Source: a virus. From it: 64,000 bases of DNA. How positions within the stretch are numbered: position 1 is the first letter of the stretch; every line of letters begins with the position of its first letter. Location: UHGV virus genome UHGV-1383976. The stretch is one strand, 5' to 3'. The notes under the pieces were generated by a model. That model was not told the DNA's origin, made no database searches, and saw only the letters and a list, made by a program, of their open reading frames with translations. Positions 1,320 through 41,330 of this stretch are shown piece by piece. Position numbers and translations under genes: made by a program.

Positions 1320-1547
1320 TCAAATTTCTTCCTCTAAATTCATTTTGTCGATTTGTCTTTTATCTCTTGGTGAATGGTCAACGGCTGCACCATAGGCCCC
1401 TTTATGTCGATATGATGCGTGACCATTTTTGGCTTTAGTTTTCTTTGATTTTCCTGCTGTTATGTATTTACTTATTTCACCGCTATTGGCAAAATAGCCG
1501 TCCTTTACATCGACAGCGCGCCCAGCATGATCAAGATGAGATAACAA
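1320..1547 (-). CDS. hypothetical small basic protein
   Basis: 75-aa ORF filling the gap between flanking minus-strand genes. Lys-rich. No strong RBS seen. Confidence 0.3.
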   Translation of the reverse strand: MLSHLDHAGRAVDVKDGYFANSGEISKYITAGKSKKTKAKNGHASYRHKGAYGAAVDHSPRDKRQIDKMNLEEEI

Positions 1548-1597
1548 ATGGCGGCGGCGTTCAATTTTTCTTTTTGCGAGCTTTGCGCATTTCTTCT

Positions 1598-2014
1598 TTA
1601 GTTCGACTCATTTCCTATTTCAACTCTCATTAGTTCATTATTCCCAAAAGGAATTCCACTAAAAGAAATATTTGTTGTCAATCCTTTTTCAAATGTCTCT
1701 CTTAGTATTGTCAAATTACCTCGTCCTCCAGTAATATCATTTGTCGAATAAGACTGTTCAATTGTTGTTAATTTTGGTTTTACAAATTGTGTAATATAGC
1801 AATTAAAACCTTTATATTTTGTCTTTATCTTTAAATAAAAAGGCTTTTCGTTTTCAAAATCAATACAGCTCATATCAAAATAAGTAGTTCCGCAATATGG
1901 GCATTTATTTAGTTCGGGTTCGATTGGAGCCGCGCAATTAGGACAGTTTATTTTCAAGGCTTTTCTTCCTCCCAATTTGGTGGAACAAAATTTGTTGCAA
2001 AATCCCAAACCCAC
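1598..2014 (-). CDS. zinc-ribbon protein (CPNC...CPYC)
   Basis: 138-aa ORF with a GTG start. A 46-aa ORF with ATG and a strong SD (aaaaggtggtggaatgaATG at 2121) overlaps upstream in the -1 frame, so the 5' part may be frameshifted. Confidence 0.45.
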   Translation of the reverse strand: MGLGFCNKFCSTKLGGRKALKINCPNCAAPIEPELNKCPYCGTTYFDMSCIDFENEKPFYLKIKTKYKGFNCYITQFVKPKLTTIEQSYSTNDITGGRGNLTILRETFEKGLTTNISFSGIPFGNNELMRVEIGNESN

Positions 2015-2233
2015 TTACCACGCCATACAAGAAAAAAGGTAGTGCCGCACGTATTATCAACATAAGTATCCAAAATGGGTTCAATTTTTTGTGTTTTTAT
2101 ATTCTTTGCTTTGAACATTCATTCCACCACCTTTTATTTTATTATATTATATCAAAATTTCTTTTCAAAATCAAATTTGTAGAGTTTCGGTTATATTAGC
2201 CTACTTATATAAGTCAAAGGAGGGATGATATCT

Positions 2234-2410
2234 ATGGCTGATACCAAAAAAGCCCATGAATGCCGTAATAGAATTATGGCATATGTTGCAAATAAACGCA
2301 TTAATTATCGTGTATTAGAAACTCTGTTGGACAATCTCGAAGCGGCTATTATTACTGATAATAAAACCGAAGAAACACCGATTCAACCGGAAGGCCCTTC
2401 AGAGGGATAA
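2234..2410 (+). CDS. small hypothetical protein (58 aa)
   Basis: SD aaggaggg lies 9 nt before the ATG at 2234. It is the only plus-strand gene in a minus-strand block and is followed by a bidirectional terminator. Confidence 0.45.
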   Translation: MADTKKAHECRNRIMAYVANKRINYRVLETLLDNLEAAIITDNKTEETPIQPEGPSEG

Positions 2411-2415
2411 ATTAT

Positions 2416-2448
2416 GCGCCAGTCTTTTAATAAGACTGGCGTTTTTTA
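2416..2448. terminator. bidirectional intrinsic terminator between convergent genes
   Basis: Hairpin gcgccagtctt-ttaataa-gactggcg followed by a T6 run. The complement has an A/T run too. Confidence 0.6.
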
Positions 2449-2685
2449 TTTATCTTCAGAACTCCATTTGTTAAGAGTTTTTTGATCAACTCGCAAAATG
2501 TATAAATCATCATCCTCTCCATTTTTCTGAATGAGAAGTGTATTGATGCCAAATCTATTTAAATGCGGCATAAACAAATATAGTCCTTCCAAAGTAGTGC
2601 CACAGAAGTTCATATTACGCAGATTATGATAAATAAACTGGCGTGTTGTTTCGTTTTCTCTTTCCCAATCTATTCTTTCTATCAT
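2446..2685 (-). CDS. hypothetical protein (79 aa)
   Basis: Internal ATG at 2685 with SD aggag. ATGA start/stop overlap with the upstream helicase gene suggests translational coupling. The ORF-track start at 2742 lies inside the helicase gene. Confidence 0.5.
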   Translation of the reverse strand: MIERIDWERENETTRQFIYHNLRNMNFCGTTLEGLYLFMPHLNRFGINTLLIQKNGEDDDLYILRVDQKTLNKWSSEDK

Positions 2686-3791
2686 TCCCAACTCCTGAAT
2701 TTTTGTTCTTGTTCTTTCTTGACGCGACGGCGTTTTACCCATAAAAGAAAGTCCTGAGCACGTGTAATAGCAACATAAGCAAGACGTCCTTCTTCGACCA
2801 TACCAAGCGGCGCTCTGTGAGTATAATAGTTCGGCTCAGGAATTGTTGCGCCTATTACAACGACTTTCTTTTGTTGAAGTCCTTTTGAAGAATGTATTGT
2901 GAGGACTTTAACGGTATTCTGTTTCATTTTTTCTTGGAGTTGCCCAAGATTTACTTCCTTTTGCTTGAAAGTATCGCAAAAAATGCCGCGGCTTTCAAGA
3001 TAAGATTTGACAGTTTCAAGCTGTGCATTAGTGCGAGTCAATACAAACCATTCACCAAATTTACCATCTTGAAGTATATAATTTGCAACCGTTTCCAAAT
3101 TGTAAAGAATTGTAATCTTTTTCCCCATTTCATCTCGCATTAGAGTAGAATTGTCATAATAGCCACAATTCATCCGCTCAATAGCCCATTTTCCAAATTC
3201 GTGAATAACGCGCGCATTGCGGAAATTTTCAGATAGCTTATAAGTTGCTACTCCATCAGTTTGGCTCAAATTTACAATAAGGTCAGGATTACTGCCTGCA
3301 AATGCATATATCGTTTGCTTCTCGTCCCCTAATATTGTAAATCGTTTTGGATTTACCATTTCCAGAATAAATTCAAACTGATGGTTATTACTATCCTGCG
3401 CCTCGTCAAGCAGCAAATGATCAACAGGAAAATTACTTACACAGCGCGGGTTTTGTTTTACTAAATTGAATAGTTCATCAAAATCCTCACTTTCAATCGT
3501 CTCTCTGGTTGCAATTTGTTCAGTATGAAGTAAAAAGTTTGCAAATGAATGAACAGTGCCGCAAAATCCAATTTGTAAAGGTTCAAGGCGATTTATAATT
3601 TCTTGCGCCGCATTATTTGTAAATGTAATAGCCACAATATGTGAGGGCAATGTTCCCTGAGATACAAGCCACTTTATGCGTTCAATAAGACAAAAAGTCT
3701 TTGAAGTACCCGCGCTAGACATTACGACAACCTTGTCTTCTGGTGCGGTTATTATTCTACGCTGTTGTTCTGTTATTTTTATTTCATTCAT
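2682..3791 (-). CDS. UvrD/PcrA-like superfamily 1 DNA helicase (short form)
   Basis: Walker A-like VMSSAGTSKT. Motif Ia AITFTNNAAQEIINRL. LLLDEAQD (motif II-like). 369 aa. Confidence 0.75.
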   Translation of the reverse strand: MNEIKITEQQRRIITAPEDKVVVMSSAGTSKTFCLIERIKWLVSQGTLPSHIVAITFTNNAAQEIINRLEPLQIGFCGTVHSFANFLLHTEQIATRETIESEDFDELFNLVKQNPRCVSNFPVDHLLLDEAQDSNNHQFEFILEMVNPKRFTILGDEKQTIYAFAGSNPDLIVNLSQTDGVATYKLSENFRNARVIHEFGKWAIERMNCGYYDNSTLMRDEMGKKITILYNLETVANYILQDGKFGEWFVLTRTNAQLETVKSYLESRGIFCDTFKQKEVNLGQLQEKMKQNTVKVLTIHSSKGLQQKKVVVIGATIPEPNYYTHRAPLGMVEEGRLAYVAITRAQDFLLWVKRRRVKKEQEQKFRSWE

Positions 3792-4603
3792 TATCCTACT
3801 CTCTCATTCAATCCAAATTTTTTTGTATCATAAAATTCAGTCCAATATTTTTCGCGTTCAGTTAGCTTATCTTTTGAAACTTTTTCCAGCAATTCAAAAG
3901 TAAAGTTTTCAATCCCATCTTCCTCCATTATGGTATGAAGGCGCGAATGACTGATGGTGCCACAATGATAGGCAGACTTAGCGTGTTGAACCCAACGGTC
4001 GCGCACATTTGTGGATTTGCCTATATAAATTTCGCCTGTTTTTTCACGTGTGATTTTATAGATGCCACTTGGTTGTTCTCCGTTTAAGACACGGCGTGTC
4101 ATTTCAAGGACAGGTTTAGCACAATAAGTATCATAAATCATCTTGTCAATATCAATTCGACGATTGAGCCGTGGAGCAATTTCTCGCAAAACTTGTATAT
4201 CACTTAACGCTTCAGGAGACAAATTGATTTTGAAGAAGGTTTGTTCTTCGATTTTCTTTTTTTCACGACGTATATCTTCATTTAGAACTTCGCGGCGTTC
4301 ACGCAAAGCGTCAAGAGTCTTTTGGACAATATCACATTGATATTGCGCGTCTTGCGTTTCTTGACTTATTTGTTCCATTCGAGCGTTATGTTGAAGTTCA
4401 ACCTCATCAAGCTCTTGTCGATATTTTTCTCTTACTTCTAAGACATTGCGCGCTGCTTCGTCTATAATTTCTTTTTCTTTTCGTAAAACTAAATTTCTTT
4501 TATAATAGTGAATGTATATAAAGTTAACAATTATCAGAGCAGCTATTATGAATATGGCCATCACAATTCCTCCTATATTTCTTACTATATATAAGTATAA
4601 CAT
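3791..4603 (-). CDS. GIY-YIG nuclease with N-terminal transmembrane helix and coiled-coil region
   Basis: C-terminal GIYKITREKTGEIYIGKSTNVRDRWVQH matches the GIY-YIG signature. The N-terminus IVMAIFIIAALIIVNFIYI is hydrophobic. The middle is rich in E/R/K heptads. Confidence 0.7.
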   Translation of the reverse strand: MLYLYIVRNIGGIVMAIFIIAALIIVNFIYIHYYKRNLVLRKEKEIIDEAARNVLEVREKYRQELDEVELQHNARMEQISQETQDAQYQCDIVQKTLDALRERREVLNEDIRREKKKIEEQTFFKINLSPEALSDIQVLREIAPRLNRRIDIDKMIYDTYCAKPVLEMTRRVLNGEQPSGIYKITREKTGEIYIGKSTNVRDRWVQHAKSAYHCGTISHSRLHTIMEEDGIENFTFELLEKVSKDKLTEREKYWTEFYDTKKFGLNERVG

Positions 4604-4622
4604 AAAAAAGGCTGGAAGTCAA
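4580..4622 (-). promoter_or_regulatory. class I sigma70-type promoter on the minus strand, overlapping an upstream terminator hairpin
   Basis: Read on the minus strand: TTGACT(in the terminator stem)-17-TATACT, then tATATATAGTAAGAAA and SD AGGAGG, then the ATG of 3791..4603. Confidence 0.5.
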
Positions 4623-4645
4623 ATTTTTGACTTCCAGCTTATATT

Positions 4646-5203
4646 TTATGGGTTGGGTTCATCCTCTAATACTTGCCAACACGACATTCGTGTATAATAT
4701 TTGTCTATATAACTATTACCTTTGAGCTTTTTATAGTCTTTATAAAGAGTATCCAATTGTTCTTTTACAGACATAGGAAAAATTCTTACATCTCGATAGG
4801 CATGATATATATCCATTATATTCGCGCGCAAGATATTCTTTTGGCTAATGGCTAGTAAATTTATTTGTTCGCTTTGTCGAGTATTGGTTTCTTCAATTCT
4901 ATCTAAGCGTTCATCAATCCCGTCAAGCCGAGTATCAATATTACCCAACTGTTTTTGTATAGGGGCGAGTTTCTTTTCAATTTCTTTTCCGACTTCTCCT
5001 GCTCGTCTCTGTTTTATTTTACTCCAAAGACCTTGAAAGAAGCCAAATTTTTTACAAATTTTTTCAAATCCATCGGCGACAAGGTAAATAGCTATAACTA
5101 CGCCACCGATAAGTTCTGGTGAAAGTTCCATTCGCTCACCTCCTCGTCTTATAGAAGTAGCAATTAGAGCATTTATTATACAGAATTTTGATGCTCTCTC
5201 CAA
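4646..5203 (-). CDS. hypothetical coiled-coil protein
   Basis: 185-aa ORF. N-terminal hydrophobic segment, then a region rich in E/K/R/L. Its stop is followed by the terminator hairpin gctggaagtcaaaaatttgacttccagcc plus a T-run. Confidence 0.5.
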   Translation of the reverse strand: MERASKFCIINALIATSIRRGGERMELSPELIGGVVIAIYLVADGFEKICKKFGFFQGLWSKIKQRRAGEVGKEIEKKLAPIQKQLGNIDTRLDGIDERLDRIEETNTRQSEQINLLAISQKNILRANIMDIYHAYRDVRIFPMSVKEQLDTLYKDYKKLKGNSYIDKYYTRMSCWQVLEDEPNP

Positions 5204-5553
5204 ACTTCATCATTATGCCAACGAGATTTCGCGCGATATTTATCCTGAAATAGTTCGTGCGCATTAGTAAGCGAATAAATATCCCAAAATGGGATGATAT
5301 ACAAGGGAATACAATTGGCTAGTGCATAACTGATTTTTCGGCGATCATGCTCTTGTTGTTTCAGTAAGCCACTACGACCGCCAAAGACTTCATAATAATG
5401 TTGTTGACCATTTACTTCGATAAGGCCGTGCGGCGTTGAAAAATCATAACGGAACCGACCGCCGCGCAAATCCGTGTAAGATACTTCTTTTTGATAATCA
5501 ATATGAGATTTTTGAAGTAAATCGCTTATAAAATTTTCATAATGGCTAGCCAT
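5176..5553 (-). CDS. Vsr/DUF559-like PD-(D/E)xK endonuclease (putative)
   Basis: RFRYDFSTPHGLIEVNGQQHY resembles the Vsr-family core. The start is taken as the ATG at 5553, overlapping the ligase stop as TAATG (coupled). Confidence 0.4.
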   Translation of the reverse strand: MASHYENFISDLLQKSHIDYQKEVSYTDLRGGRFRYDFSTPHGLIEVNGQQHYYEVFGGRSGLLKQQEHDRRKISYALANCIPLYIIPFWDIYSLTNAHELFQDKYRAKSRWHNDEVWREHQNSV

Positions 5554-6662
5554 TATATTTCCTCTATTTGACGCCACAAGCACTCAGATTTGTCTTTGTC
5601 ATCACGGAAGCGCACAAATTTAGGATGTCGCAACATTTTATCATCCGTTAGCTGCATTGCGCTTACTTCAATAACACGGCCAGCATAAGATTCGGGATGA
5701 GACTTTATTTCTTCAGTAAGGCCACTAAGAAAACCAATAGGATGAATCTTATCATTATTATACACCGCGATTTCAAGACTGCCGGCCATTCCATAAAAGA
5801 ATGATTTTGTGACAGGTTCATACTGCGCGCCTTTTGAAAATTCTTTATAAAAATTGCCTTTCTTGAACTCGTTAGTTTTAGTATCAAGCCAATACTCCCA
5901 CGTTTCAATCTCTTTGCCAATATAAGTGCGGGTTGGCTTTGTATAGCGTCCAGTAAAGAAACAATCAATTGTGTCTTCAAGTTCCTTCTTTATTTTGAGG
6001 GAAATCTTAGTTGAACGTTTGCCCGGCTGGTAGATACCATTCTCATTTAGAATAACACCACCCTCACCGCCAGCCGCAAGAGTGTCAGCTATCATATTCC
6101 ACAGTTCCTGTCCCCAATAAAACCTTGCGGCAGTTGCATAGAGATAATGATTATCTTTTACTATATCATCAATATGCGCTAAATAAGACATACGAACTTT
6201 TGCTGGTTGATTCATAAGAGATATGCCATCCCAAGCCAGTATATCAAAAGCATAAAAATGAAGCTTATCATTTTTCTGGCGTGCGATTGCCTTGTCGGTA
6301 AGAGCGCCCATTACTTTGGTGACTTCGCTAGATCCTTCGTGTGTTGGAAAATAAATTTCACCAAGAATACAGGTTCCAATCGGCAAGGCATCAAAAAATG
6401 ATTGAAGTTGTGGGACGTGGTCGAGTTTATCAGCAAAATCGCCACTTACACCACGAGAGCGACTAAGTAGCATCATATTGTTATCTTCATCTTTTACAAA
6501 TTTAGAGAAGTAGCCATCCATCTTACGAGCACCCATCCATTCACCAGAAAAGACGCGCTTACGTGCCTCTTCTTTTGGATCACCTTTATAGGACTTTGGA
6601 TGAGCGTAATAACGCATTGGTTCCATCTCTTTGAAATTAAATCCATCTATATAGCCAAGCAT
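5553..6662 (-). CDS. ATP-dependent DNA (or RNA) ligase
   Basis: Motif I KMDGY (KxDG). Motif IV-like GGEGGVIL. Motif V KISLKIKK. 369 aa. Confidence 0.65.
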   Translation of the reverse strand: MLGYIDGFNFKEMEPMRYYAHPKSYKGDPKEEARKRVFSGEWMGARKMDGYFSKFVKDEDNNMMLLSRSRGVSGDFADKLDHVPQLQSFFDALPIGTCILGEIYFPTHEGSSEVTKVMGALTDKAIARQKNDKLHFYAFDILAWDGISLMNQPAKVRMSYLAHIDDIVKDNHYLYATAARFYWGQELWNMIADTLAAGGEGGVILNENGIYQPGKRSTKISLKIKKELEDTIDCFFTGRYTKPTRTYIGKEIETWEYWLDTKTNEFKKGNFYKEFSKGAQYEPVTKSFFYGMAGSLEIAVYNNDKIHPIGFLSGLTEEIKSHPESYAGRVIEVSAMQLTDDKMLRHPKFVRFRDDKDKSECLWRQIEEI

Positions 6663-8988: not shown

Positions 8989-10347
8989 ATGTCAATGGTC
9001 AAAGTAGGATTGCGTTTTCTTGATAAAAATAATGACATTGGTAATAAAACATATTGGTATATTGTAAAAGATAAAAAGGTTTGGGCAGACTTAAACAAAG
9101 CTGCAATGGTAAGCATTTCGACTCAAAATTCAACAGCATTTAAAATCACAAACGAGACTGGATATGGATATAGAGATGCTTGGGTTGTTTGGGTTGATAT
9201 TGATACAGTAAAAGAGGGTGATGATAAAGAACTTGTTGTCATAAGCGAAATTAGAGGATATGATGACACAAGACCCAGAAAGAAGGTTTCTTTTCCTGTT
9301 TGGGGGATTTGTGGAATAAATAGGCCTGAGTGTTATGATAGTTATTTTTCCGAGCCTATATCGTATAACTTTGATGCTGGTTTGGATCTCACTGTAAACA
9401 ATGGCGCATTTTATCTTAATACTTCTGACGGTTATAAGCCGCTCAAGGTTTCGTTTGATGGTTCAATGTCTAATATGACGAACACTTGTGAGTCAGAGAA
9501 TTCTAAACTTCAATCTCTTTTCGGTAGCTCTGAAAATATTACTCATACATTAACTGATACTCTCACTACGTCTAATTTTGAAGACTTGAAAAATTTGATT
9601 TATGAAAAAAATTCATCTATAATAAATACACAAAATAAAAAGGAGAAAAATGAAATGAATATGAAAATTTTTGACACTCAGTTCGGCAAAGTTGATGATG
9701 TAGCAATGTCTATCTATGGCGCGACTTTCAAGACCGTAGGTACTGATGGCCTTGCGCGCTCTATCGCATATGACCCTAATACTCAGGAGTATATCGACGT
9801 CCCCAATGAGATGATTATCGCAAAAGGCTCTTATTGTTATGCCATGCCTTGCACTGCCGATAATCTTCATATTGGTGAGTATATTCGTCATAATGGAGCA
9901 TGGGCACGTGTAATTGATGTTGATGATGCTGCGCGACTTGTAATTGAAAAGATATCGACTCGTGAGGTAGCGACTATTCTGCCTGTACGTTCTATGTTTG
10001 GCTATTCTTTCTATACTAAGCTCATTACTCCATTCCAGAGTGGCTTTACGACTGCTGATGCGGCTCATCCTTTTGGCGATATGCTTCCCTTCCTTATGAT
10101 GGACGATGAAAAGATGGATGATATGCTTCCTCTTATATTGATGATGGGTCAGAACGGTGCGGCGCAGTTTGATATGTCAAATCCTATGATGCTTATGATG
10201 CTTATGAATGAAAAAGATGGCAAGGATTCTGATGTATTCAAAATGATGGCAATGATGTCTATGTTCAATCAGGCAAAGCCTGTTGTTAAGACCGATGCCC
10301 GCCACTGTGAGTGTGATTGTTGCGACACTGAAAGGAAGTCTTACTAA
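8989..10347 (+). CDS. hypothetical protein with Met-rich and Cys-cluster C-terminus
   Basis: 452 aa. The C-terminal 100 aa read MLPFLMMDD...MLPLILMMGQ...MSNPMMLMMLMNE...FKMMAMMSMF...HCECDCCD. Confidence 0.6.
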   Translation: MSMVKVGLRFLDKNNDIGNKTYWYIVKDKKVWADLNKAAMVSISTQNSTAFKITNETGYGYRDAWVVWVDIDTVKEGDDKELVVISEIRGYDDTRPRKKVSFPVWGICGINRPECYDSYFSEPISYNFDAGLDLTVNNGAFYLNTSDGYKPLKVSFDGSMSNMTNTCESENSKLQSLFGSSENITHTLTDTLTTSNFEDLKNLIYEKNSSIINTQNKKEKNEMNMKIFDTQFGKVDDVAMSIYGATFKTVGTDGLARSIAYDPNTQEYIDVPNEMIIAKGSYCYAMPCTADNLHIGEYIRHNGAWARVIDVDDAARLVIEKISTREVATILPVRSMFGYSFYTKLITPFQSGFTTADAAHPFGDMLPFLMMDDEKMDDMLPLILMMGQNGAAQFDMSNPMMLMMLMNEKDGKDSDVFKMMAMMSMFNQAKPVVKTDARHCECDCCDTERKSY

Positions 10348-18359: not shown

Positions 18360-19060
18360 ATGCTAGTGCCACCTACACGTGGTGTCCTCTGTTTTCGCTA
18401 AGAGCGCTGGCATATATCCAATTAAATAATACTAACTCAGTGAAGACGGAATTCGATGTTCCGGCTGAGAAATTCCAGCTAGCACAGCAGAAACGAAACA
18501 AGGATACTTGTGGATACTGGACTGAGAGGCCATCGAGAGATGAGCCGAAGTAGAGCGGTCGCTCAAGTGGGAAGAAGAGCAGGAATTGTGCTGAGTGAAT
18601 CGCAAGCAAACGCAGCCGTGGAGTGGCGAGCGCAATAGACAGCTTGGTGAATAGCCAAGCCGAACCCAAGTTAGGTCTTAGTTGGTGCCTGTGGCAATCC
18701 TTGGGAAAACCAATAAGCTCGTTCCGTTGAGACGACAGGGAATGTGAAATCTGTCTTTGACACTCTACAGCATCCGAGTAGCGGAACACAACGGGGACTT
18801 ATAGAAAAGATGGTCAGTAATAATAGAAATTGCTATTTTATCTTTCTGAACATCCCGTGAAAGGTAGAGGTAATCAACCCTCTGGCGGATTAGGCGACAT
18901 TAGACACTTGGGCTATCCAAGAGTAACAAGTCAATGTTGTTGCTGGGGTAAGAAGTGTATGGGCGACGGCCTGTATGCTCAGACTTATCTCCCGCGTGGC
19001 AGAATATGCTTGAAGGTTTATCGAGGTAGGGCGAAGGCCCAGTAATATTTAGTTGGATTT
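18360..19060 (+). ncRNA. GC-rich ORF-free structured region (candidate large ncRNA) downstream of a strong promoter
   Basis: About 700 nt with stops in all frames of all three codon types and visibly higher GC than its surroundings. Only spurious minus-strand ORFs in the track. Confidence 0.35.
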
Positions 19061-20418: not shown

Positions 20419-20525
20419 ACAGTTCCACATTAGAAAAACCTAATGTGGACTTTTTTATATATATCAGCTACAAAAAATCTACTTAGAAATGCGGGCAACC
20501 GCAAAACACATCAAAGGAGGAGCCT

Positions 20526-21149
20526 ATGGAAGAATTAGGTCTGTTTTTGGGTTTGGGAGATGATGCTAACTATCAGCTTGCTAATCCAAGCCTGTTAGCG
20601 TATTACAAAGAACTCAATGAGCGTCGTCTCTGGCTCGATTGCGAGGTAGATGATGAAGCGATAGGTGATATGTGCCGCCAGATTATTCGCTGGAATAAGG
20701 AGGATGACGCAATAGAACCTTCGAAGAGGAAAAAGATTATTATCTATTTTGTCAGCCCCGGTGGCAGTTTAGACAGCTATCTATGGCTCAAAGACGTAAT
20801 AAATCTGAGTATTACTCCGATAGTTGGTATTATGATGAGCCGCACAGCTAGCGCGGCTGCTCTGATATATCTTCATTGCCACGAACGCTATGCTCTTGAG
20901 AGTTCAAAAATCTTGTTCCATTATGGTTCGATTTCTCTCGCACAAGACGCCGCAAATGCGATTGAGGCGGTAAAAAATTATGAGCAGGAAATCAAAAAGT
21001 TTGTTGACGTAATTCGTGAGCACTCTGACTTTTCAGATGATTATATTCGTGATAAGTTGGTCAAGGATTGGGAACTTACGGCTGACGAAGCTCTCGAACA
21101 TGGCATTGTTCAAAAAATAATAAGCGATATCAGCGAACTCTGGAACTAA
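20526..21149 (+). CDS. ClpP-like serine protease (prohead protease candidate)
   Basis: IIYFVSPGGSLDSYLWL and MSRTASAAALIY resemble ClpP/S14 motifs. SD aaaggagg. Confidence 0.6.
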   Translation: MEELGLFLGLGDDANYQLANPSLLAYYKELNERRLWLDCEVDDEAIGDMCRQIIRWNKEDDAIEPSKRKKIIIYFVSPGGSLDSYLWLKDVINLSITPIVGIMMSRTASAAALIYLHCHERYALESSKILFHYGSISLAQDAANAIEAVKNYEQEIKKFVDVIREHSDFSDDYIRDKLVKDWELTADEALEHGIVQKIISDISELWN

Positions 21150-21160
21150 GGAGGTTTGTT

Positions 21161-21481
21161 ATGGATAAATATACTGGCTATTATGAGTGGCATCCATCAG
21201 AACAAGGACTTGAGGATTTTTATTCTGGCCTTTTTACACCTGCAGGGATGGGCTTGGTTGAAAACCAGTATTTGATTATCTATGACTCCGAAGATAAGGT
21301 TATAGATAAATATTTTTGTAAGAACAATGAATTTGAAAAGGTTCATTATATGGCGCTTCAAAGCGATTACTGTGGGGTTATCAAACCACGCAATGTATAT
21401 CAGGAATTGGCTATTCATTCCCTTATGGATAGACGTGTTCCCGTAAAAGTTTTGGGTGGCGTCTTTGGCTCGGGTAAATAA
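21161..21481 (+). CDS. phoH: phoH-like ATPase, exon 1 (N-terminal part, ending inside the Walker A motif)
   Basis: ORF ends ...VKVLGGVFGSGK then a stop, so the P-loop is cut after GK. The C-terminal PhoH homology resumes at 22412-22942. Confidence 0.55.
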   Translation: MDKYTGYYEWHPSEQGLEDFYSGLFTPAGMGLVENQYLIIYDSEDKVIDKYFCKNNEFEKVHYMALQSDYCGVIKPRNVYQELAIHSLMDRRVPVKVLGGVFGSGK

Positions 21482-22426
21482 CTTGCCCCTTCTTAGGGCG
21501 ACCTAAGAATGAAAATCGCGTGAATTGCTGGAAGCCTAAGCCGCAAGGTATGGTAATCAGCAGCCAAGCCGTTTTAGCAACGGAAGGTTCAACGACTATC
21601 CCGGCAGGGAGTAGGGAGCAATCCCGAAGCGCGCGACAACTTTTGTTTTGTTTTTATTTTAATAAAGGAGGTGAGGTTATAAATAAGTGGACAGATGAAC
21701 AAAAAGCAGAAATTATTGATGATTATACCAAAAAAGGTATGACTTTGGCAGAGATTGGAAAAAAATTTCATTCTAAAGGAGATACAATTAGTAAATATCT
21801 AAAGTCTTGGGATATTCCCATCAATCGTAGAAAGAAAAATCGGCTTATGAATGAAAAGTTTTTTTCTATAATTGACTCAGCTGAAAAGAGTTATTTTCTG
21901 GGCTTGTTATTCGCTGATGGTTCAGTTGTTTTAAATAGCGAGCGGGCGCCATATGTTTCTTTAGAATTAGTAGAAAAGGACAAAGAAATATTAGAAATTT
22001 TCCGTTCATTATTAAATTGTCAAAATGACTTATACTACAATAAGCGAGATAATCGGAAGAATGGAACATATACTTTTGGAGTAAGAAGTCAATTACTAGC
22101 TGATGATTTAGCTAAATTTAATATCATTCCAAATAAAACTTATGAAACAACCCAAGTAATTTTCCCAGAAAATTTTCTTATTGATTTTCTAAGAGGGTAT
22201 ATTGATGGCGATGGCTCTATTTATCAAAATGTTTATAAGGCCGTTTGGAATGGACAAGATGCTAAACGAATTATAAACATTCTCTATTTAAAGAACGATG
22301 GCATTGCGCTCTCTCGAAAACGAGAACGAGCTAAGTTAGCTCAACAAAACAAAAGTTGATGATATAGTCTAATCCCTTTTTAAAAATATCGGGAAACCGA
22401 GGGTATAAATGAAGGATCTTCTAATG
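21476..22426 (+). mobile_element. group I intron (boundaries approximate) carrying a LAGLIDADG homing endonuclease gene and splitting the phoH-like gene
   Basis: GC-rich structured 5' part: ggaagcctaagccgcaaggtatggtaatcagcagccaagcc...gttcaacgacta...atcccgaagcg. It is homologous to the 5' part of the second intron at 34.4 kb. Candidate 5' splice sites fall after U21475 or A21478. Candidate 3' ends fall at G22411 or G22426. Confidence 0.5.
21680..22359 (+). CDS. LAGLIDADG homing endonuclease (two-motif) with N-terminal HTH; start uncertain
   Basis: LGLLFADGSV and LRGYIDGDGSI motifs. The ORF is open from 21520, but no canonical start follows the SD aaaggaggtgagg at about 21662. The first ATG is at 21742. 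Confidence 0.7.
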
Positions 22427-22942
22427 AGCGGGGCTTGTTTTAGCTTTATCGAAAAAGGTATTTTTGAAAAACTTGTTTATATACGCCCCAATATCACGCT
22501 TGAAGGAGTGCCTGATATTGGCTACCTCAAAGGCGGAATGGACGAAAAGCTTGAATGGACTTTAGCTCCATTATGGGATAAGTTCGGTGGCCGCGAAGCT
22601 ACTCAAAATCTTGTTGCTTCTGGCAAGATTGAGCTTGTAGCCTTACCTTTTATCAAAGGTCGCAGTTTTGAAAACAGCATTATTTATGTCAGTGAAGGCC
22701 AGAACATTACTCGTAAAGTCGCTGGCAATATTATTAGTCGCGCTGGTGAGGGCACTGAAATTTGGATAAATGGCGACTATCACAGTCAGACCGATCGCAG
22801 AATGTTTGAGGTTGATAATGGTATGCGTGCGATGGAGGAAACCCTGAAAGGCAATGCGCTCTATGAAACTATTTATCTTCCTATTACAGAGCGTTCTGCT
22901 GTAGCTCAACTTGCTGGAATTGTTTGTAACACTGAAAATTGA
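22412..22942 (+). CDS. phoH: phoH-like ATPase, exon 2
   Basis: IRP...LGYL...VALPFIKGRSFENSIIYVSEGQN...IWINGDYHSQTD parallels E. coli PhoH TRP...[24 protein letters not shown]...VITGDVTQIDL. Confidence 0.6.
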   Translation, partial: KDLLMSGACFSFIEKGIFEKLVYIRPNITLEGVPDIGYLKGGMDEKLEWTLAPLWDKFGGREATQNLVASGKIELVALPFIKGRSFENSIIYVSEGQNITRKVAGNIISRAGEGTEIWINGDYHSQTDRRMFEVDNGMRAMEETLKGNALYETIYLPITERSAVAQLAGIVCNTEN

Positions 22943-23097
22943 GCAACTCTTTTTTAGAATGAAGTTTCACTAAATCTACTTACTATTGCCACAGGTCAGT
23001 TAGTTCCGTAGTGGCAGCGGCATTGAAAGACTAACTGTTTATATATCGTGAGGGGCAATCGCCCCTCTTTTTTTATATCTAAAAGGAGGGCTTGTAG

Positions 23098-33354: not shown

Positions 33355-33401
33355 ATAAAAATATAAGATAATTGAGATTTTACAAAAGGAGATCAATTCA
33401 A

Positions 33402-34389
33402 ATGATAGGCGTAGACCTAAATCAATATCGTAATCTACCTGATTACGCACAACTTAAAAAGGATGGTTATGAGTTCGCCATTATAAAACTGGCAACTGGT
33501 GTAACCTTTACTAACCCGCTTTTTCAAACCCAGTTTAGTGGTTGTAAGTCAGCCGGCCTAAACATCGGCGTTTATACTCGTGCCGACAAGCAACCTACAA
33601 GCGGCGCACAGGAAGCTGCCTATGCACTCAACATACTAGGTAATCGTCATGTAGATTTCCCCATCTACTATGACGTAGAGGGAGAAACACTAAATCTTTC
33701 AAAAGACAAGCTGACTCAGCTGGCTCTTGATTTTGGTAAAGCAATAAAACGCGCAGGATATCGCTGGGGTATTTATACATCCCGCGCACATTTCAAATGC
33801 TTTGACCTTGACAGGCTGAAAGAAGCTGGCGCATCTATATGGTGCGCCGCCTATGATAATCAAGCTGGTATGGAGTGCGACATTTGGCAAAAGTCAGATA
33901 AAGGCTCTATTACAGGATATTCTGGACCAGTTGATGTAGATGTTTTATATAATGAAAGCATAATACAGAAGGAGGAAAATAAAATGAGTTTGAATTTGAT
34001 AAAATGTTTTCAAACACAAGGCGCGTGGTATAATCAAACCACAAATGGAACTCCTGTTGGGGTATGTTGGCACGATACCGGCGCTGGTAACCCAACATTG
34101 AAGCGCTATGTCCAGCCATCTACTAATGACCCCGATTATAATTATTTTATAAACCTTATCGGCAAGAACAATAATGGCAATCACTGGAATCGTATGGCCG
34201 CAAATCAGGCAGGATTGAACGCTTGGATTGGTCAACTCGCGGATGGCAGTGTTGCTACTGTTCAGGCTGGCCCTTGGGAAAAGCGTCCTTGGGGTGTTGG
34301 CTCTGGCAGATACGGTTCACTTAATGGTGATAAGAATGTGCCTAATGATAAGTTTTGGATCCAGTTTGAGATTACATCGTTGCTAGTCT
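33402..34389 (+). CDS. endolysin exon 1: GH25 muramidase domain plus N-terminal half of an amidase_2 (PGRP-type) domain
   Basis: GH25 motifs MIGVDLNQY...FAIIKLATG...GVYTRA.... Then VCWHDTGAGN...AWIGQLADGSVATVQAGPWEKRPWGVGSG...IQFEI matches the first half of amidase_2. Unspliced, the ORF runs to the stop at 34397. Confidence 0.6.
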
Positions 34390-35469
34390 CCGCGTAAAGC
34401 GATTTGCGTGTAAAAATACATATCGAATTGCTGGAAAACCGTAAAGCTATTCTTGCTACAACGTAAGGATGAAACAAGCCTAAGCGTGAAAGCCGCGAAA
34501 GCAGAAAGAAAAGAATAGATGGCGTATGGTTAAATCCTAAGCGCTATATAATTGGCAATCAGCAGCTAAGCCTTGAATAAAGGAAAGTTCAACGACTAAG
34601 TGCCTTGCAAGCGATTGGCAAGGACAGTGGTATGCGGCTCATTGAGCCGAAGATATAGTCTGTGCTTCGAGAGAAATCCGAAGGAGCGAAAGCTCAGTGC
34701 GGGGTAGCGCCCAAAAAGTTTATTTTGAATGGAGAAAGAAATGACTTATAAAGAATTTATTGACAATATTTTAGAAGAACGAGGACGTTTTTCGTGTGGA
34801 GAGGAATATCACGAGAGGCATCACATTCTTCCTAAGTGCAAAGGCGGCACAGATGATAAAGAAAATTTGATTGACTTATTTGCTAAAGAGCATTTTATTG
34901 CGCATAAATTGTTAGCTGAAGAAAATCCTGAAGATATAAGTTTGGTTAGGGCTTATCAATGCATGACAATAGCTAGAAATCCAAAAACTGCACGATATAT
35001 TGCTTCTTCTGAAGAGTATGAGGAAGCAAGAAAAATGTTTTCAGAAGCTCTCAAAGAATTATATAAAGACAAAACAAAGCATCCAAGCTATGGCAAACAT
35101 ATTAGTGAAGAAAGAAAACAACGAATTAGTGAAGCCAATAAAGGAAATAAGTATTGCGTTGGCCGGAAAGTTTCAGAAGAAACACGCAAGAAAATAAGTG
35201 AAGCCAATTCGAACCCTTCCGCCGAAACGCGTGAAAAAATGAGTCAATCTCAAAAGAAGCTCGCACGGTGGGATGGAGCAAAGAATCCTAAAGCTCGAAA
35301 AGTTGTTCGTCTTTCTGATGGGAAAGTTTATGATTGTATTAAATATGCCGCCGAAGAAAATAATATTCCTCTCTCCACTTTCAAAAGTAGATTACACAAA
35401 GGCAAAGGCGATTTTGTGTATTTCGAAGACTATCAAAATAAACAGCACTAAACACAAACAGATGTGACG
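34390..35469 (+). mobile_element. group I intron (boundaries approximate) carrying an HNH homing endonuclease gene and splitting the endolysin within its amidase_2 domain
   Basis: The 5' portion ggcaatcagcagctaagcc...gttcaacgacta...atccgaaggagcgaaagctcag is homologous to the phoH intron core. The amidase_2 reading frame reopens at 35442 and continues in frame into the PG-binding and SH3b domains. Confidence 0.5.
34729..35451 (+). CDS. HNH homing endonuclease with NUMOD3-like C-terminal repeats
   Basis: HHILPKCKGGTDDKENLIDLFAKEHFIAH is an HNH core. Repeats SEERKQRISEANKGN, SEETRKKISEANS and SAETREKMSQSQK. Confidence 0.75.
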   Translation: MEKEMTYKEFIDNILEERGRFSCGEEYHERHHILPKCKGGTDDKENLIDLFAKEHFIAHKLLAEENPEDISLVRAYQCMTIARNPKTARYIASSEEYEEARKMFSEALKELYKDKTKHPSYGKHISEERKQRISEANKGNKYCVGRKVSEETRKKISEANSNPSAETREKMSQSQKKLARWDGAKNPKARKVVRLSDGKVYDCIKYAAEENNIPLSTFKSRLHKGKGDFVYFEDYQNKQH

Positions 35470-37617: not shown

Positions 37618-38823
37618 ATGCTTGATGTAAAAATTTTTGCACGTTGTATTGAACAGACCGCTGAAGAGCAAATATACGATTTAGCCGCCTCGTCGATAGG
37701 AGAAAACGCGCACATACGAATAATGCCGGATGCGCACGCTGGTAAGGGATGCGTAATTGGAACTACTATGTTAGTAAAAGATAAGATTTGCCCTAATATT
37801 GTTGGCGTTGACATTGGATGCGGAGTTACTGCTGCAAAAATTAACTGTCCTTTGATCATGGATGAGTTAATGTTTTTGCGCGAACGCCTTGTAGATGGCG
37901 CAATACCATCAGGAAGCACTATATACAACGAATTTAGAGATTGGGATCCTTTTTTTGAACTTGGCGCAACTATCCTTCGTAAGTTGAGATGTAAGGAAAT
38001 TTACAATAAGTGTGAAATTGATTATTTTGCTAAGTCTATGGGAACACTCGGAGGCGGAAATCATTTCATTGAAATAGACGAAGACTCCGATGGCAATCAT
38101 TGGATTGTTGTACATACTGGCTCGCGCAATTTGGGCCTTCAGGTAGCAAAGTATTATCAAAACAGAGCAGAAATGCGAATTCTTGAAGAATATACTCACA
38201 AGCGTAATGCAGCTATCACTACGCTGAAAGAGGAAGGCCGCCAGCGTGAAATTTCAGAGGTATTAGCCTCTATCAAAAAAGATGCGCCATCTAAGTTTGA
38301 TTATTTAGTAGATAATGACTATAATAACTATCTTCGCGATATGGCACTTTGTCAGAAGTGGGCAAAATATAACCGAGCAAATATTATTTATAACATTGCT
38401 GCAATTTTAAATCGCAAAGTTACAATGACAGTTGAGTCAGTTCATAACTATATAGATTTTTCAACTCAAACACCTATCCTCCGCAAGGGCGCAATTTCGG
38501 CTAAGTATGACGAGATTTGTCTTATTCCACTCAATATGCGGGATGGTACGCTACTGTGCCGTGGAAAAGGTAACTCTGATTGGAACTTATCAGCTCCACA
38601 TGGAGCCGGACGACTTATGTCTCGCGCTCAGGCAAGAAAAGAATTATCTTTAGACGAGTTTGAAAAATCAATGGACGGCATTGTGTCAAACGTTTGTGCA
38701 GAAACCATTGATGAAGCACCTTTCGCTTACAAGAATTGGGAAGAGATTGAAGAAGCTGTGCGGCCTACCGTTGAAATTATTGACCACTGGAAGCCAATTT
38801 TCAATTTTAAGGCGATGTCTTAA
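37618..38823 (+). CDS. rtcB: RtcB-family RNA ligase (3'-phosphate/5'-hydroxyl)
   Basis: MPDAHAGKG, GVDIGCGV, GGGNHFIEID and HTGSRNLG are RtcB signature motifs. 401 aa. Confidence 0.85.
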   Translation: MLDVKIFARCIEQTAEEQIYDLAASSIGENAHIRIMPDAHAGKGCVIGTTMLVKDKICPNIVGVDIGCGVTAAKINCPLIMDELMFLRERLVDGAIPSGSTIYNEFRDWDPFFELGATILRKLRCKEIYNKCEIDYFAKSMGTLGGGNHFIEIDEDSDGNHWIVVHTGSRNLGLQVAKYYQNRAEMRILEEYTHKRNAAITTLKEEGRQREISEVLASIKKDAPSKFDYLVDNDYNNYLRDMALCQKWAKYNRANIIYNIAAILNRKVTMTVESVHNYIDFSTQTPILRKGAISAKYDEICLIPLNMRDGTLLCRGKGNSDWNLSAPHGAGRLMSRAQARKELSLDEFEKSMDGIVSNVCAETIDEAPFAYKNWEEIEEAVRPTVEIIDHWKPIFNFKAMS

Positions 38824-40395: not shown

Positions 40396-40401
40396 AAATA
40401 T

Positions 40402-40480
40402 GGGCCGGATAACTCAGATGGTAGAGAACCAGTGCGGTTAGGCGCTGGAGGAGGCGGTGGTTCGAATCCACCTCGGCCCA
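40402..40480 (+). tRNA. atypical tRNA-like gene (79 nt, no encoded CCA) with a 6-bp anticodon stem and an 8-nt loop cgGTTAgg
   Basis: Acceptor gggccgg/tcggccc. Perfect T-arm ggtggttcgaatccacc. Anticodon region ccagtg-cggttagg-cgctgg. Confidence 0.4.
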
Positions 40481-41330
40481 ATTAGATATGAAGGCGACAT
40501 ACAGTTATTATAGTCGCCGGACGTACTGCTCCGTCCATTACGAACAGAGCAGCCCCGCAAAACGAGGGTGAGAGTTGAGTTTGTTGGTTTTACTTGAAAC
40601 CGCCGTCGGGGTAAGTGGCGTTACATCTTACCAAAAAAATCCGTCTGACTGCAGTAAGGGCGGTTGGTTTGTAGGTTTGCCAATAGGTATAAGTCTAGAT
40701 ACCAATAAAATACTTACCAAAGAGGAGTAATATGGCTGAAGTCCTCCAGCGTGGTTGATATGTTGAAATGCCTAGGCCACGCACATATGTCAGTTTAGTT
40801 TAACGAGGGAAAACAACGCCCGTCAAGGCGTAATTTCGGGTTCGAGTCCCGAAACTGTCCTTGGTTTGACAGGCCAAGAAATTTGTCAGGTGCGGCCCTT
40901 TGTCGCCGGTCGAGACTCCGTCCGGAAATGAGCTACGTCTAAGTAAGAAGCGTGAACTTAGCGCTGATGTGCGTGATGCATCGGTTGCGTGTCCAAAACA
41001 CGACAGGTTTGGTTGAGTTTTCTACACAAAATTCAATTGGGTCAGGCCGCCCACAGGATGGCCGCGGGTTCCACTCCCCGAACGAAAAACAATCGGGAAA
41101 TCTCTTGTTTTTCTCAATTTTGTTAGTAGTTAGTCGCATTGATGAAATTGCTTTTTGGAGTAAAGTTGTGAGTAGCTAAAGAAATGACAATTCTTTTTCT
41201 ACTCAAAAAGCCAAGTATCCGCCTCTGCTTGGACATCCGCGCGAGGTTGCGTGTTGATGAAAAGCGTGGAAGGCAGTTATATAATGGGGACTGCCGCATA
41301 GTTGGTTTAGGAGAGTTGCCAGCTACGGAA
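40481..41330. ncRNA. third GC-rich ORF-free region with embedded tRNA-like fragments
   Basis: About 850 nt with no ORF. Contains tRNA-like gtcagtt...acgcc-cgtcaa-ggcgt...tcgggttcgagtcccga-aactgtc (6-nt anticodon loop, no CCA). Confidence 0.3.

Follow-up and report, generated by a model that had tools for sequence, protein, structure and literature searches.

A probable group I intron with a decayed LAGLIDADG endonuclease gene between the Walker A codons of a phage phoH-like gene

The group I introns in the td, nrdB, and sunY genes of phage T4 belong to subgroup IA2 and have an IA-type core with the P7.1 and P7.2 helices. Phage introns mostly carry enzymes of the GIY-YIG, HNH, PD-(D/E)xK, or EDxHD types (PMC3984707), and LAGLIDADG enzymes are a known minority among phage intron endonucleases. 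Among the introns of Bastillevirinae phages, one with a LAGLIDADG open reading frame (ORF) was found, located in a DNA polymerase gene (NAR 2025, PMC11878797); the main text of that paper does not mention phoH as an intron host gene. A phoH gene containing an intein was reported for the Campylobacter phage vB_CcoM-IBB_35 (PMC3322345). In the open-access literature, no description of a phoH gene split by a group I intron was found, which is absence of evidence only; such introns are evidently common in metagenomic phages. Here, the phoH-like locus of the virus genome UHGV-1383976 was analyzed in a stretch of 64,000 nucleotides (herein referred to as the window). Segment 21476-22411 of the window is very probably a self-splicing group I intron that homed into the phoH gene, and that retains its ribozyme but carries a decayed endonuclease gene. 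All features of the intron and of its host gene lie on the plus strand.

The host gene is split between two ORFs. The first one (21161-21481) reads ...VKVLGGVFGSGK and ends with GGVFGSGK, its TAA stop (21479-21481) being located inside the intron. The second one (22409-22942) matches the Pfam PhoH family (PF02562) by itself with 80.7 bits, and the joined exons match it with 97.3 bits (gathering score 27; profile positions 2-186 of 205). Thus, PhoH homology does resume at the second ORF, as had been proposed in an earlier sequence-only reading of this DNA. Exon 1 (21161-21475; tblastn and Pfam PhoH) comprises 105 codons, from M1 to the G105 of Gly-Ser-Gly, and is colinear with positions 10001-10315 of the intron-less locus L001. 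Exon 2 (22412-22942) comprises 176 codons and a TGA stop. Removal of the intron gives an 846-nt ORF for a 281-aa PhoH-like protein. The joined exons and L001:10001-10846 have the same length, 846 nt, and differ by 46 substitutions, mostly synonymous, with no insertions or deletions. The intron boundaries are fixed by this intron-less allele. Additionally, a database search revealed P0001, a protein of 281 aa with 99% identity to the joined exons; it is present on six fetched contigs, in the gene order clpP, phoH, and a gene for a 563-aa protein, without the intron. The gene order is the same in loci that have the intron and in loci that do not. Strong purifying selection acts on both exons, with a ratio of non-synonymous to synonymous substitution rates (dN/dS) of 0.02-0.05. 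No match for positions 21100-23000 was found by megablast among the INPHARED phages. Cultured phages include no close relative of this one; the best PhoH matches belong to the Lactococcus 949 group and show 38-42% amino-acid identity.

The 5′ splice site follows GGT (U21475), not AAA. Although the first ORF does end with GGVFGSGK, as described in the sequence-only reading, the exon does not, because it is the intron that supplies the codon for the terminal K of this ORF. Lys106 of Walker A (GSG|KD) is actually specified by AAG (22412-22414), which opens exon 2. The predicted ligated junction is ...GGCTCGGGT|AAGGATCTT... (GGU|AAG). The start of the intron and the start of exon 2 have two A's in common, which gives a 2-nt positional ambiguity, and the predicted product is the same for every position (GGU AAG GAU, GSGKD). 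The resulting P-loop, GVFGSGKD, departs from the canonical Walker A motif GxxxxGK[S/T]. The acidic residue replacing Ser/Thr is a clade-wide trait, as GK[D/E] was found in 115 of the 120 closest PhoH homologs. In the alignment of this clade M110 is invariant and D107 nearly so, and the intron-less alleles read GSGKDLLM. Thus, the choice between GSGKS and GSGKD, which had been considered ambiguous, is settled by the intron-less alleles and the homologs for GSGKD.

The intron is 936 nt long and is inserted in phase 0 between Gly105 and Lys106; it was identified from an Rfam match, covariation, a minimum free energy (MFE) fold, and the intron-less allele. The Rfam Intron_gpI model (RF00028) matches positions 21466-21741 with 66.7 bits (gathering score 50, E = 1e-14), and helices P1 to P9, with the P3/P7 pseudoknot and J6/7 of the core, could be placed, those of the 3′ half manually. 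The P1 hairpin (21472-21488), read from the sequence, is formed by the last four bases of exon 1, GGGU, and the intron AA (21472-21477) pairing with UUGCCC (21483-21488). The 5′ splice site is marked by a wobble pair, U21475-G21485. Through pairing with the AAG of exon 2, the internal guide sequence CUUGCCC (21482-21488) additionally forms P10. This helix is AAG/CUU in the window and AAA/UUU in the related loci L010, L012, L013, and L015, and the P1 pair at exon position -4 changes from G-C to U-A together with the exon codon in L012 and L013.

The 5′ catalytic core (21490-21636) includes P2 (21490-97/21502-09), P3 (21516-22 with 21630-36), P4 (21526-31/21557-62), P5 and P5a (21534-54), P6 and P6a (21563-88), and the 5′ strand of P7 (21594-99). 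These are followed by P7.1 (21600-09, CCC-GGCA-GGG) and P7.2 (21614-25, GGGA-GCAA-UCCC); two P7.2 pairs covary. P7.1 and P7.2 between P7 and the 3′ strand of P3 define subgroup IA; therefore, the intron was placed in this subgroup as IA-like. The 5′ strand of P8, CAACUUUUGUUUUG (21637-21650), pairs over 14 bp with positions 22345-22358 as an exact inverted repeat, and this helix covaries among relatives. The 3′ core (22345-22411) contains the 3′ strand of P8 (22345-58), the 3′ strand of P7 (AUAGUC, 22364-69), P9 (22374-77/22400-03), P9a (22390-92/22397-99) with a GAAA loop, and the terminal ωG (G22411). The ωG immediately precedes the Lys codon in all nine complete introns found at the same site. 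The guanine-cytosine content is 47.6% in the 5′ core, 31.3% in the endonuclease ORF, and 39.6% in the window, in line with the description of the 5′ part as GC-rich.

Covariation was assessed for the structure drawn by hand on the window sequence from P1 to P9a, with pairs counted over seven same-site introns (alignment A4). A single MAFFT alignment of the nine complete same-site introns (A3) was discarded, since the region from P7.1 to the 3′ strand of P3 was misaligned in L016-L019, and counting was thus limited to the seven closer sequences. In the hand-drawn structure 96.9% of cells are paired, vs. 34-46% in slid controls. In total, 21 pairs show compensatory changes on both sides, a value reached in none of 500 shuffles. 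These pairs include seven of the eight P2 pairs as well as pairs in P3, P5a, P6a, P7.2, P8, P9a, and P1 (-4). P7 (GACUAU/AUAGUC) is invariant, which is consistent with the fold and gives no covariation support. The unconstrained MFE fold (RNAfold, -81 kcal/mol) of the RNA lacking the ORF recovers P2 to P6a, P7.1, P7.2, P8, and P9a. Together with the Rfam match and exon colinearity, these results uphold the proposal of a group I intron with a LAGLIDADG gene inside the Walker A codons of phoH.

Related loci were fetched using the endonuclease protein as a query. Introns at the Gly|Lys site of phoH were found in L007-L019, where PhoH identity to the window ranges from 99% down to ~28%. The close relatives are L007, L008, and L009. 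L010 and L011 represent another ~129-kb phage, with PhoH ~45-56% identical, and L012-L015 are IMG/VR contigs. The distant subgroup, L016-L019, has PhoH only ~28-35% identical and keeps a canonical GKS or GKT P-loop. In all complete same-site introns the ORF is located in the P8 loop (L8). Rfam scores of 52-70 bits were obtained for L007, L008, L012, L013, L015, L016, and L017. Full-length copies of the endonuclease were found in relatives of the window copy.

Over ~16 kb aligning in blocks, the window shares ~94-95% identity with L001, which has no intron; thus, presence and absence of the intron coexist as a polymorphism in closely related phages. Compared with L007, the window is 99% identical in the 5′ intron segment upstream of the ORF (21476-21678) and 100% identical in the 3′ core, vs. 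only 91% in exon 1, and synonymous divergence (dS) between the two is 0.13 in the endonuclease ORF and 0.31 in phoH. These values make the intron younger than the split between its two host genes. Around the junction, the L007 exons resemble L001, from which they differ within 50 nt only at positions -19, -4, and +3. The -4 and +3 states of L007 are common to the window and correspond to bases pairing with the guide sequence. Of the 32 variants of the window itself, 26 are located within 155 nt on either side of the insertion site. Both the L007 mosaic and the cluster of window variants look like co-conversion tracts left by homing. Judging from these sequences, the presence/absence polymorphism and the mosaic exon flanks indicate recent homing, and it appears that an L001-like intron-less allele has recently acquired the ATA-bearing intron described below.

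The same endonuclease family was also observed at a second phoH site, at residue ~146 near a GYLKG motif, in L053, L075, L084, and L085. In L016, two group I introns are present in one phoH gene (2269-3354 and ~3500-4700). In L013 (IMGVR_UViG_3300011005_000052, positions 1495-5893) and L014 (187-3423), which have the Walker A intron of phoH, the ORFs are open only with TAG read as a sense codon. In-frame TAG codons number four in the endonuclease gene, one or two in each of the phoH exons, and 17-20 in a 617-aa downstream ORF; the endonuclease TAG positions correspond to Gln in comparable homologs (e.g., MQRQW). These two contigs look like TAG-recoded phages whose intron endonuclease shares the recoding. 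No suppressor tRNA was found among the 15 tRNAs of the window (ARAGORN), which were checked owing to these two loci.

The endonuclease ORF (21679-22359) comprises 226 codons, from ATA to TGA, and is located in the P8 loop, with its final codons overlapping the 3′ strand of P8. It was delimited using Pfam LAGLIDADG_3, phrog_4645, an alignment of homologs, and structure models. The intervening ORF as called (279 codons) matches LAGLIDADG_3 (PF14528, 35.6-36.4 bits for the window endonuclease vs. a threshold of 22.5), and the phrog_4645 match (E = 2e-43) covers only residues 3-185. A helix-turn-helix (HTH) region (21694-21807) is followed by the two LAGLIDADG motifs that had already been recognized, LLFADGSV (21904-21927) and YIDGDGSI (22198-22221). 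Residues D80, G81, D178, and G179 are invariant in the family, giving one acidic catalytic residue per motif.

A Shine-Dalgarno (SD) sequence, AAAGGAGGTGA (21664-21674), has the same position and spacing as in relatives with an ATG start. However, the codon found 7 nt after the GGAGG of this sequence is ATA rather than ATG, GTG, or TTG, in agreement with the remark that a canonical start is missing there. The homologs are ~270 aa long (270 aa in L008 and 266 aa in L007) and begin with M-x-(x)-R/K-x-W. Their conserved start codon is ATG in L008 and L009 but is replaced by ATA in the window and in L007, behind the same SD at the same spacing; by this comparison, the change from ATG to ATA is to be read as derived. 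An ATT codon is present at the homologous start in a second lineage (L015/P0131, 86 members). In E. coli, initiation at AUA, AUU, and AUC reaches ~1-2% of that at AUG (bioRxiv 10.1101/063800).

Upstream starts were considered and rejected: GTG 21520, ATG 21550, and a TTG in P8 are all located in paired core RNA and have no SD, and in L007 they are also out of frame owing to a 5-nt TTTTG insertion in P8. In ~40 of the 60 closest family members, the start lies 3-6 residues ahead of the conserved aromatic residue; most of the others escaped the search pattern used, and upstream extensions are found only in P0121, P0122, and P0131.

The DNA alignment with L007 and L008 shows that, directly after the second LAGLIDADG motif, the window copy lacks 120 nt (40 codons), with the frame maintained. 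The junction of this deletion is at 22221/22222 and is flanked by the direct repeat TATCAA. The deleted allele was found on five contigs; two of them, L093 and L094, come from two different samples and are identical to the window over 3.8 kb. The model of a full-length relative, P0123, has a predicted local distance difference test score (pLDDT) of 95.5 and contains a three-helix HTH and two complete α-β-β-α-β-β-α domains, which form the DNA-binding saddle. Its best Foldseek matches are I-AniI (1p8k), I-Tsp061I (2dch), and the bI3 maturase (2ab5), with E-values from 6e-9 to 1e-8; a search of PDB sequences with the endonuclease gave marginal matches only (I-Tsp061I, E = 0.06). The deletion takes out strands β1-β3 and helix α2 of domain 2. 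In the model of the window protein, the HTH, domain 1, and both LAGLIDADG helices are kept, pLDDT falls below 50 at residues 183-187, and no strands follow the second LAGLIDADG helix, so that the second domain of the saddle is incomplete. Thus, the proposed two-motif homing endonuclease does have both motifs but is not a complete enzyme, having lost 40 residues and the domain-2 β-sheet. Judging from the models, the 226-aa protein is very probably no longer active as a nuclease.

The C-terminal peptide V-E/D-D-I-V-stop is present in most family members (in L008 and L009 at ~4790-4813, ...EDIV*) and is encoded by the 3′ strand of P8, J8/7, and the 3′ strand of P7 (GUUGAAGAUAUAGUCUAA). Thus, the sequence of the catalytic core codes for this conserved peptide as well (dual coding). 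The endonuclease ORF of the window and L007 stops earlier, at TGA 22357-22359, owing to a frame difference.

The following course of events can be proposed. Homing would have brought the intron into the phoH-like gene of a phage of ~129 kb, where it separates the Gly and Lys codons of Walker A in phase 0. Once the clpP-phoH unit has been transcribed, CUUGCCC would pair as the guide with the GGGU of exon 1 and the AAG of exon 2. Guanosine-initiated transesterification at U21475, and then the reaction at ωG22411, would ligate the exons, and the spliced mRNA would be translated to the 281-aa PhoH-like protein with the P-loop GVFGSGKD. In relatives, the full-length enzyme presumably cuts intron-less phoH, for which the putative target is TTTGGTTCAGGT|AAAGATCTTCTAATG (the intron-less L001 site is TTTGGTTCAGGTAAAGATCTTCTAATG), and the intron would spread via double-strand-break repair. 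The endonuclease gene of the window very probably represents a late stage of the homing cycle, in which the ATG became ATA, at best a weak near-cognate start, and a 120-nt slippage deletion removed the β-sheet of domain 2.

Several points weigh against this explanation. The Rfam model was unable to align the 3′ core because of the ~700 nt in L8, and the 3′ half of the fold (P8′, P7′, P9, and ωG) rests on the manual structure and covariation. The structure tested was derived from the window sequence, which is an advantage over the slid controls, and splicing is a deduction from the DNA. As the Rfam alignment spans only the 5′ two-thirds of the core, phoH could also be taken for a pseudogene disrupted by non-splicing DNA, with the ribozyme as a relic. 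This is very improbable, considering that the exons evolve under the selection described above, that all core helices are intact and show compensatory changes across lineages, that the U-G pair, ωG, and P10 are present, and that the arrangement persists where PhoH is only 28-56% identical. Even less credible is another junction, in which exon 1 would end with AAA at 21478 and the intron with G22426, and for which the cDNA would read GGTAAAAGCGGG. It would yield GSGKS and thus a textbook GK[S/T], but at the cost of an A instead of U at the 5′ splice site, of any pairing with the guide sequence, and of the conserved D-x-L-M (D107-L-L-M110), which would be deleted; it also disagrees with the GSGKDLLM of the intron-less alleles and the GK[D/E] of most homologs.

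Other points concern the decay of the endonuclease gene. AlphaFold cannot prove a loss of activity, and the gene can be called dead securely only with regard to the deletion. The endonuclease ORFs of the window and L007 differ by 17 synonymous and 3 non-synonymous substitutions (dN/dS 0.04). As both copies have ATA, purifying selection continued after the loss of ATG, and the ATA copy was probably still translated until recently. This low ratio, the strong SD at the correct spacing, the ATT start of the L015/P0131 lineage, initiation at AUA, AUU, and AUC at ~1-2% of the AUG level, and the conservation of both catalytic Asp motifs would all suit an intact intron with a functional and mobile endonuclease, for which AUA is a deliberately weak start and the 40-residue deletion is tolerated. 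We consider this improbable, since β1-β3 and α2 of domain 2 are deleted with no sheet left in the model, the PHROG match ends at residue 185, and no DNA differences exist between the three deleted copies that were compared (the window, L093, and L094), so that no selection after the deletion can be demonstrated. Still less probable is the retention of the truncated protein as a maturase or as a WhiA-like DNA-binding regulator, composed of the HTH and a degenerate scaffold. The bifunctional I-AniI and the bI3 maturase are among the best structural matches, homologs weakly match LAGLIDADG_WhiA, and the ORF remains open and in frame after the deletion; however, any deletion is in frame with a chance of ~1 in 3, diverged copies that could reveal selection are lacking among those with the deleted allele, and the ribozyme seems to be self-sufficient in its fold, which lineages with a very different endonuclease have kept.

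It is conceivable, though rather doubtful, that in this intron lineage the near-cognate AUA start (AUU in the second lineage) yields a trickle of endonuclease sufficient for homing. The strong purifying selection on the ATA ORF and the apparently recent arrival of the ATA-bearing intron in an L001-like allele (the L007 mosaic) would suit this idea. The same intron family also occurs in TAG-recoded phages, where TAG is a sense codon in the endonuclease ORF. If true, weak non-AUG starts would be a recurrent form of self-limiting of intron endonuclease expression.

A second Rfam group I match was found at positions 34334-34683 (71.2 bits). This intron (34334-~35470) interrupts the amidase part of the endolysin region and has a large insertion in the P5 region. 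Its ORF (34729-35451) encodes an HNH protein (phrog_655) and is located downstream of the core, not in L8. The two introns share only three segments of 12-17 nt (blastn-short, E 0.19-0.77), which correspond to J3/4-P4, P4′-P6, and J6/7-P7 and are also present in the Rfam consensus. A specific kinship between them was tried and rejected, the global core alignment being similar only in the universal core. Thus, of the idea that two related introns invaded two genes, the common class holds and the specific relationship does not, the shared strings being generic core; as far as the sequences tell, the introns share a class and not a demonstrable recent common origin. No further intron was found in the endolysin region at E ≤ 1. 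Positions 33372-34397 of this region form one continuous ORF, in which an internal SD and ATG (~33969-33987) precede a second part holding the amidase-like motif CWHDTGAGN. This ORF may encode a lysin fused from two domains, or the gene may have an internal start.

Other features were observed elsewhere in the window. A terminator-like hairpin at 23050-23067 on the plus strand closes the clpP-phoH transcription unit, and a matching upstream one is located at 20424-20449; both were found by consensus scan only. A full-length ROOL RNA (18412-19059, 271.8 bits) is located within a tRNA gene cluster and is conserved in L007 and L008. A gene for an RtcB-type RNA ligase was found at 37618-38823. Two tRNA-like genes, 40401-40481 and 40789-40860, have irregular anticodon loops according to ARAGORN (4-base "gtta" and 2-base "tc") and are called tRNA by Rfam with 32.5 and 42.9 bits, respectively.

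The locus is of practical relevance for annotation. Gene callers split this phoH into ORFs of 106 and 177 aa, and recognition of the intron restores the 281-aa protein; the endonuclease ORF that they predict reaches into the ribozyme core (P0121, from ATG 21550). Since phoH is a marker gene for phage diversity, introns in it could disturb surveys based on ORFs or the polymerase chain reaction. The Gly|Lys position of the PhoH Walker A motif is a recurrent homing site, used in at least 10 diverged loci in uncultivated phages, and members of this endonuclease family occupy other positions in phoH as well. The main interest of the locus lies in this recurrent use of Walker A, in the selected non-AUG start, and in the series of homing stages seen in near-identical genomes: an empty site, a full-length gene with ATG, a full-length gene with ATA, and a gene with both ATA and the deletion.

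The closest annotated relative of the endonuclease is I-MsaII, the product of an intron that interrupts a gene for a RecA-like recombinase in Staphylococcus Kayvirus/Twort-like phages (phage 812, SA11, and fRuSau02), with ~38% identity over 99% of a ~270-aa protein. A protein of this type has been annotated as an "intron-encoded putative endonuclease" (PMC5618024). In both cases, the intron is found in a conserved enzyme gene of a large, Firmicutes-type lytic phage. In contrast, the host gene is phoH here and a recombinase in Kayvirus, where the endonuclease is full length; the likeness is drawn from the endonuclease. The Campylobacter phage intein resembles the intron in its host gene and in being a selfish splicing element, but acts at the protein rather than the RNA level. 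I-AniI, I-Tsp061I, and the bI3 maturase have two pseudo-symmetric domains with one acidic residue per motif, as does P0123. Sequence identity is only 14-21%, the phage family adds the N-terminal three-helix HTH, and the window copy is devoid of the domain-2 sheet. As in the td, nrdB, and sunY introns of T4, a free-standing ORF is looped out of a peripheral helix, the gene interrupted is that of an enzyme and is split at a highly conserved position, the intron is present or absent among close relatives, and flanking exons show co-conversion. However, the T4 endonucleases are of the GIY-YIG or HNH type, not LAGLIDADG, and the T4 intron ORFs are located in P6a or P9.1, whereas that of the phoH intron is in L8. 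The phoH intron is thus a well-supported example of a familiar type of element, and the accepted view of how such elements work is unchanged.

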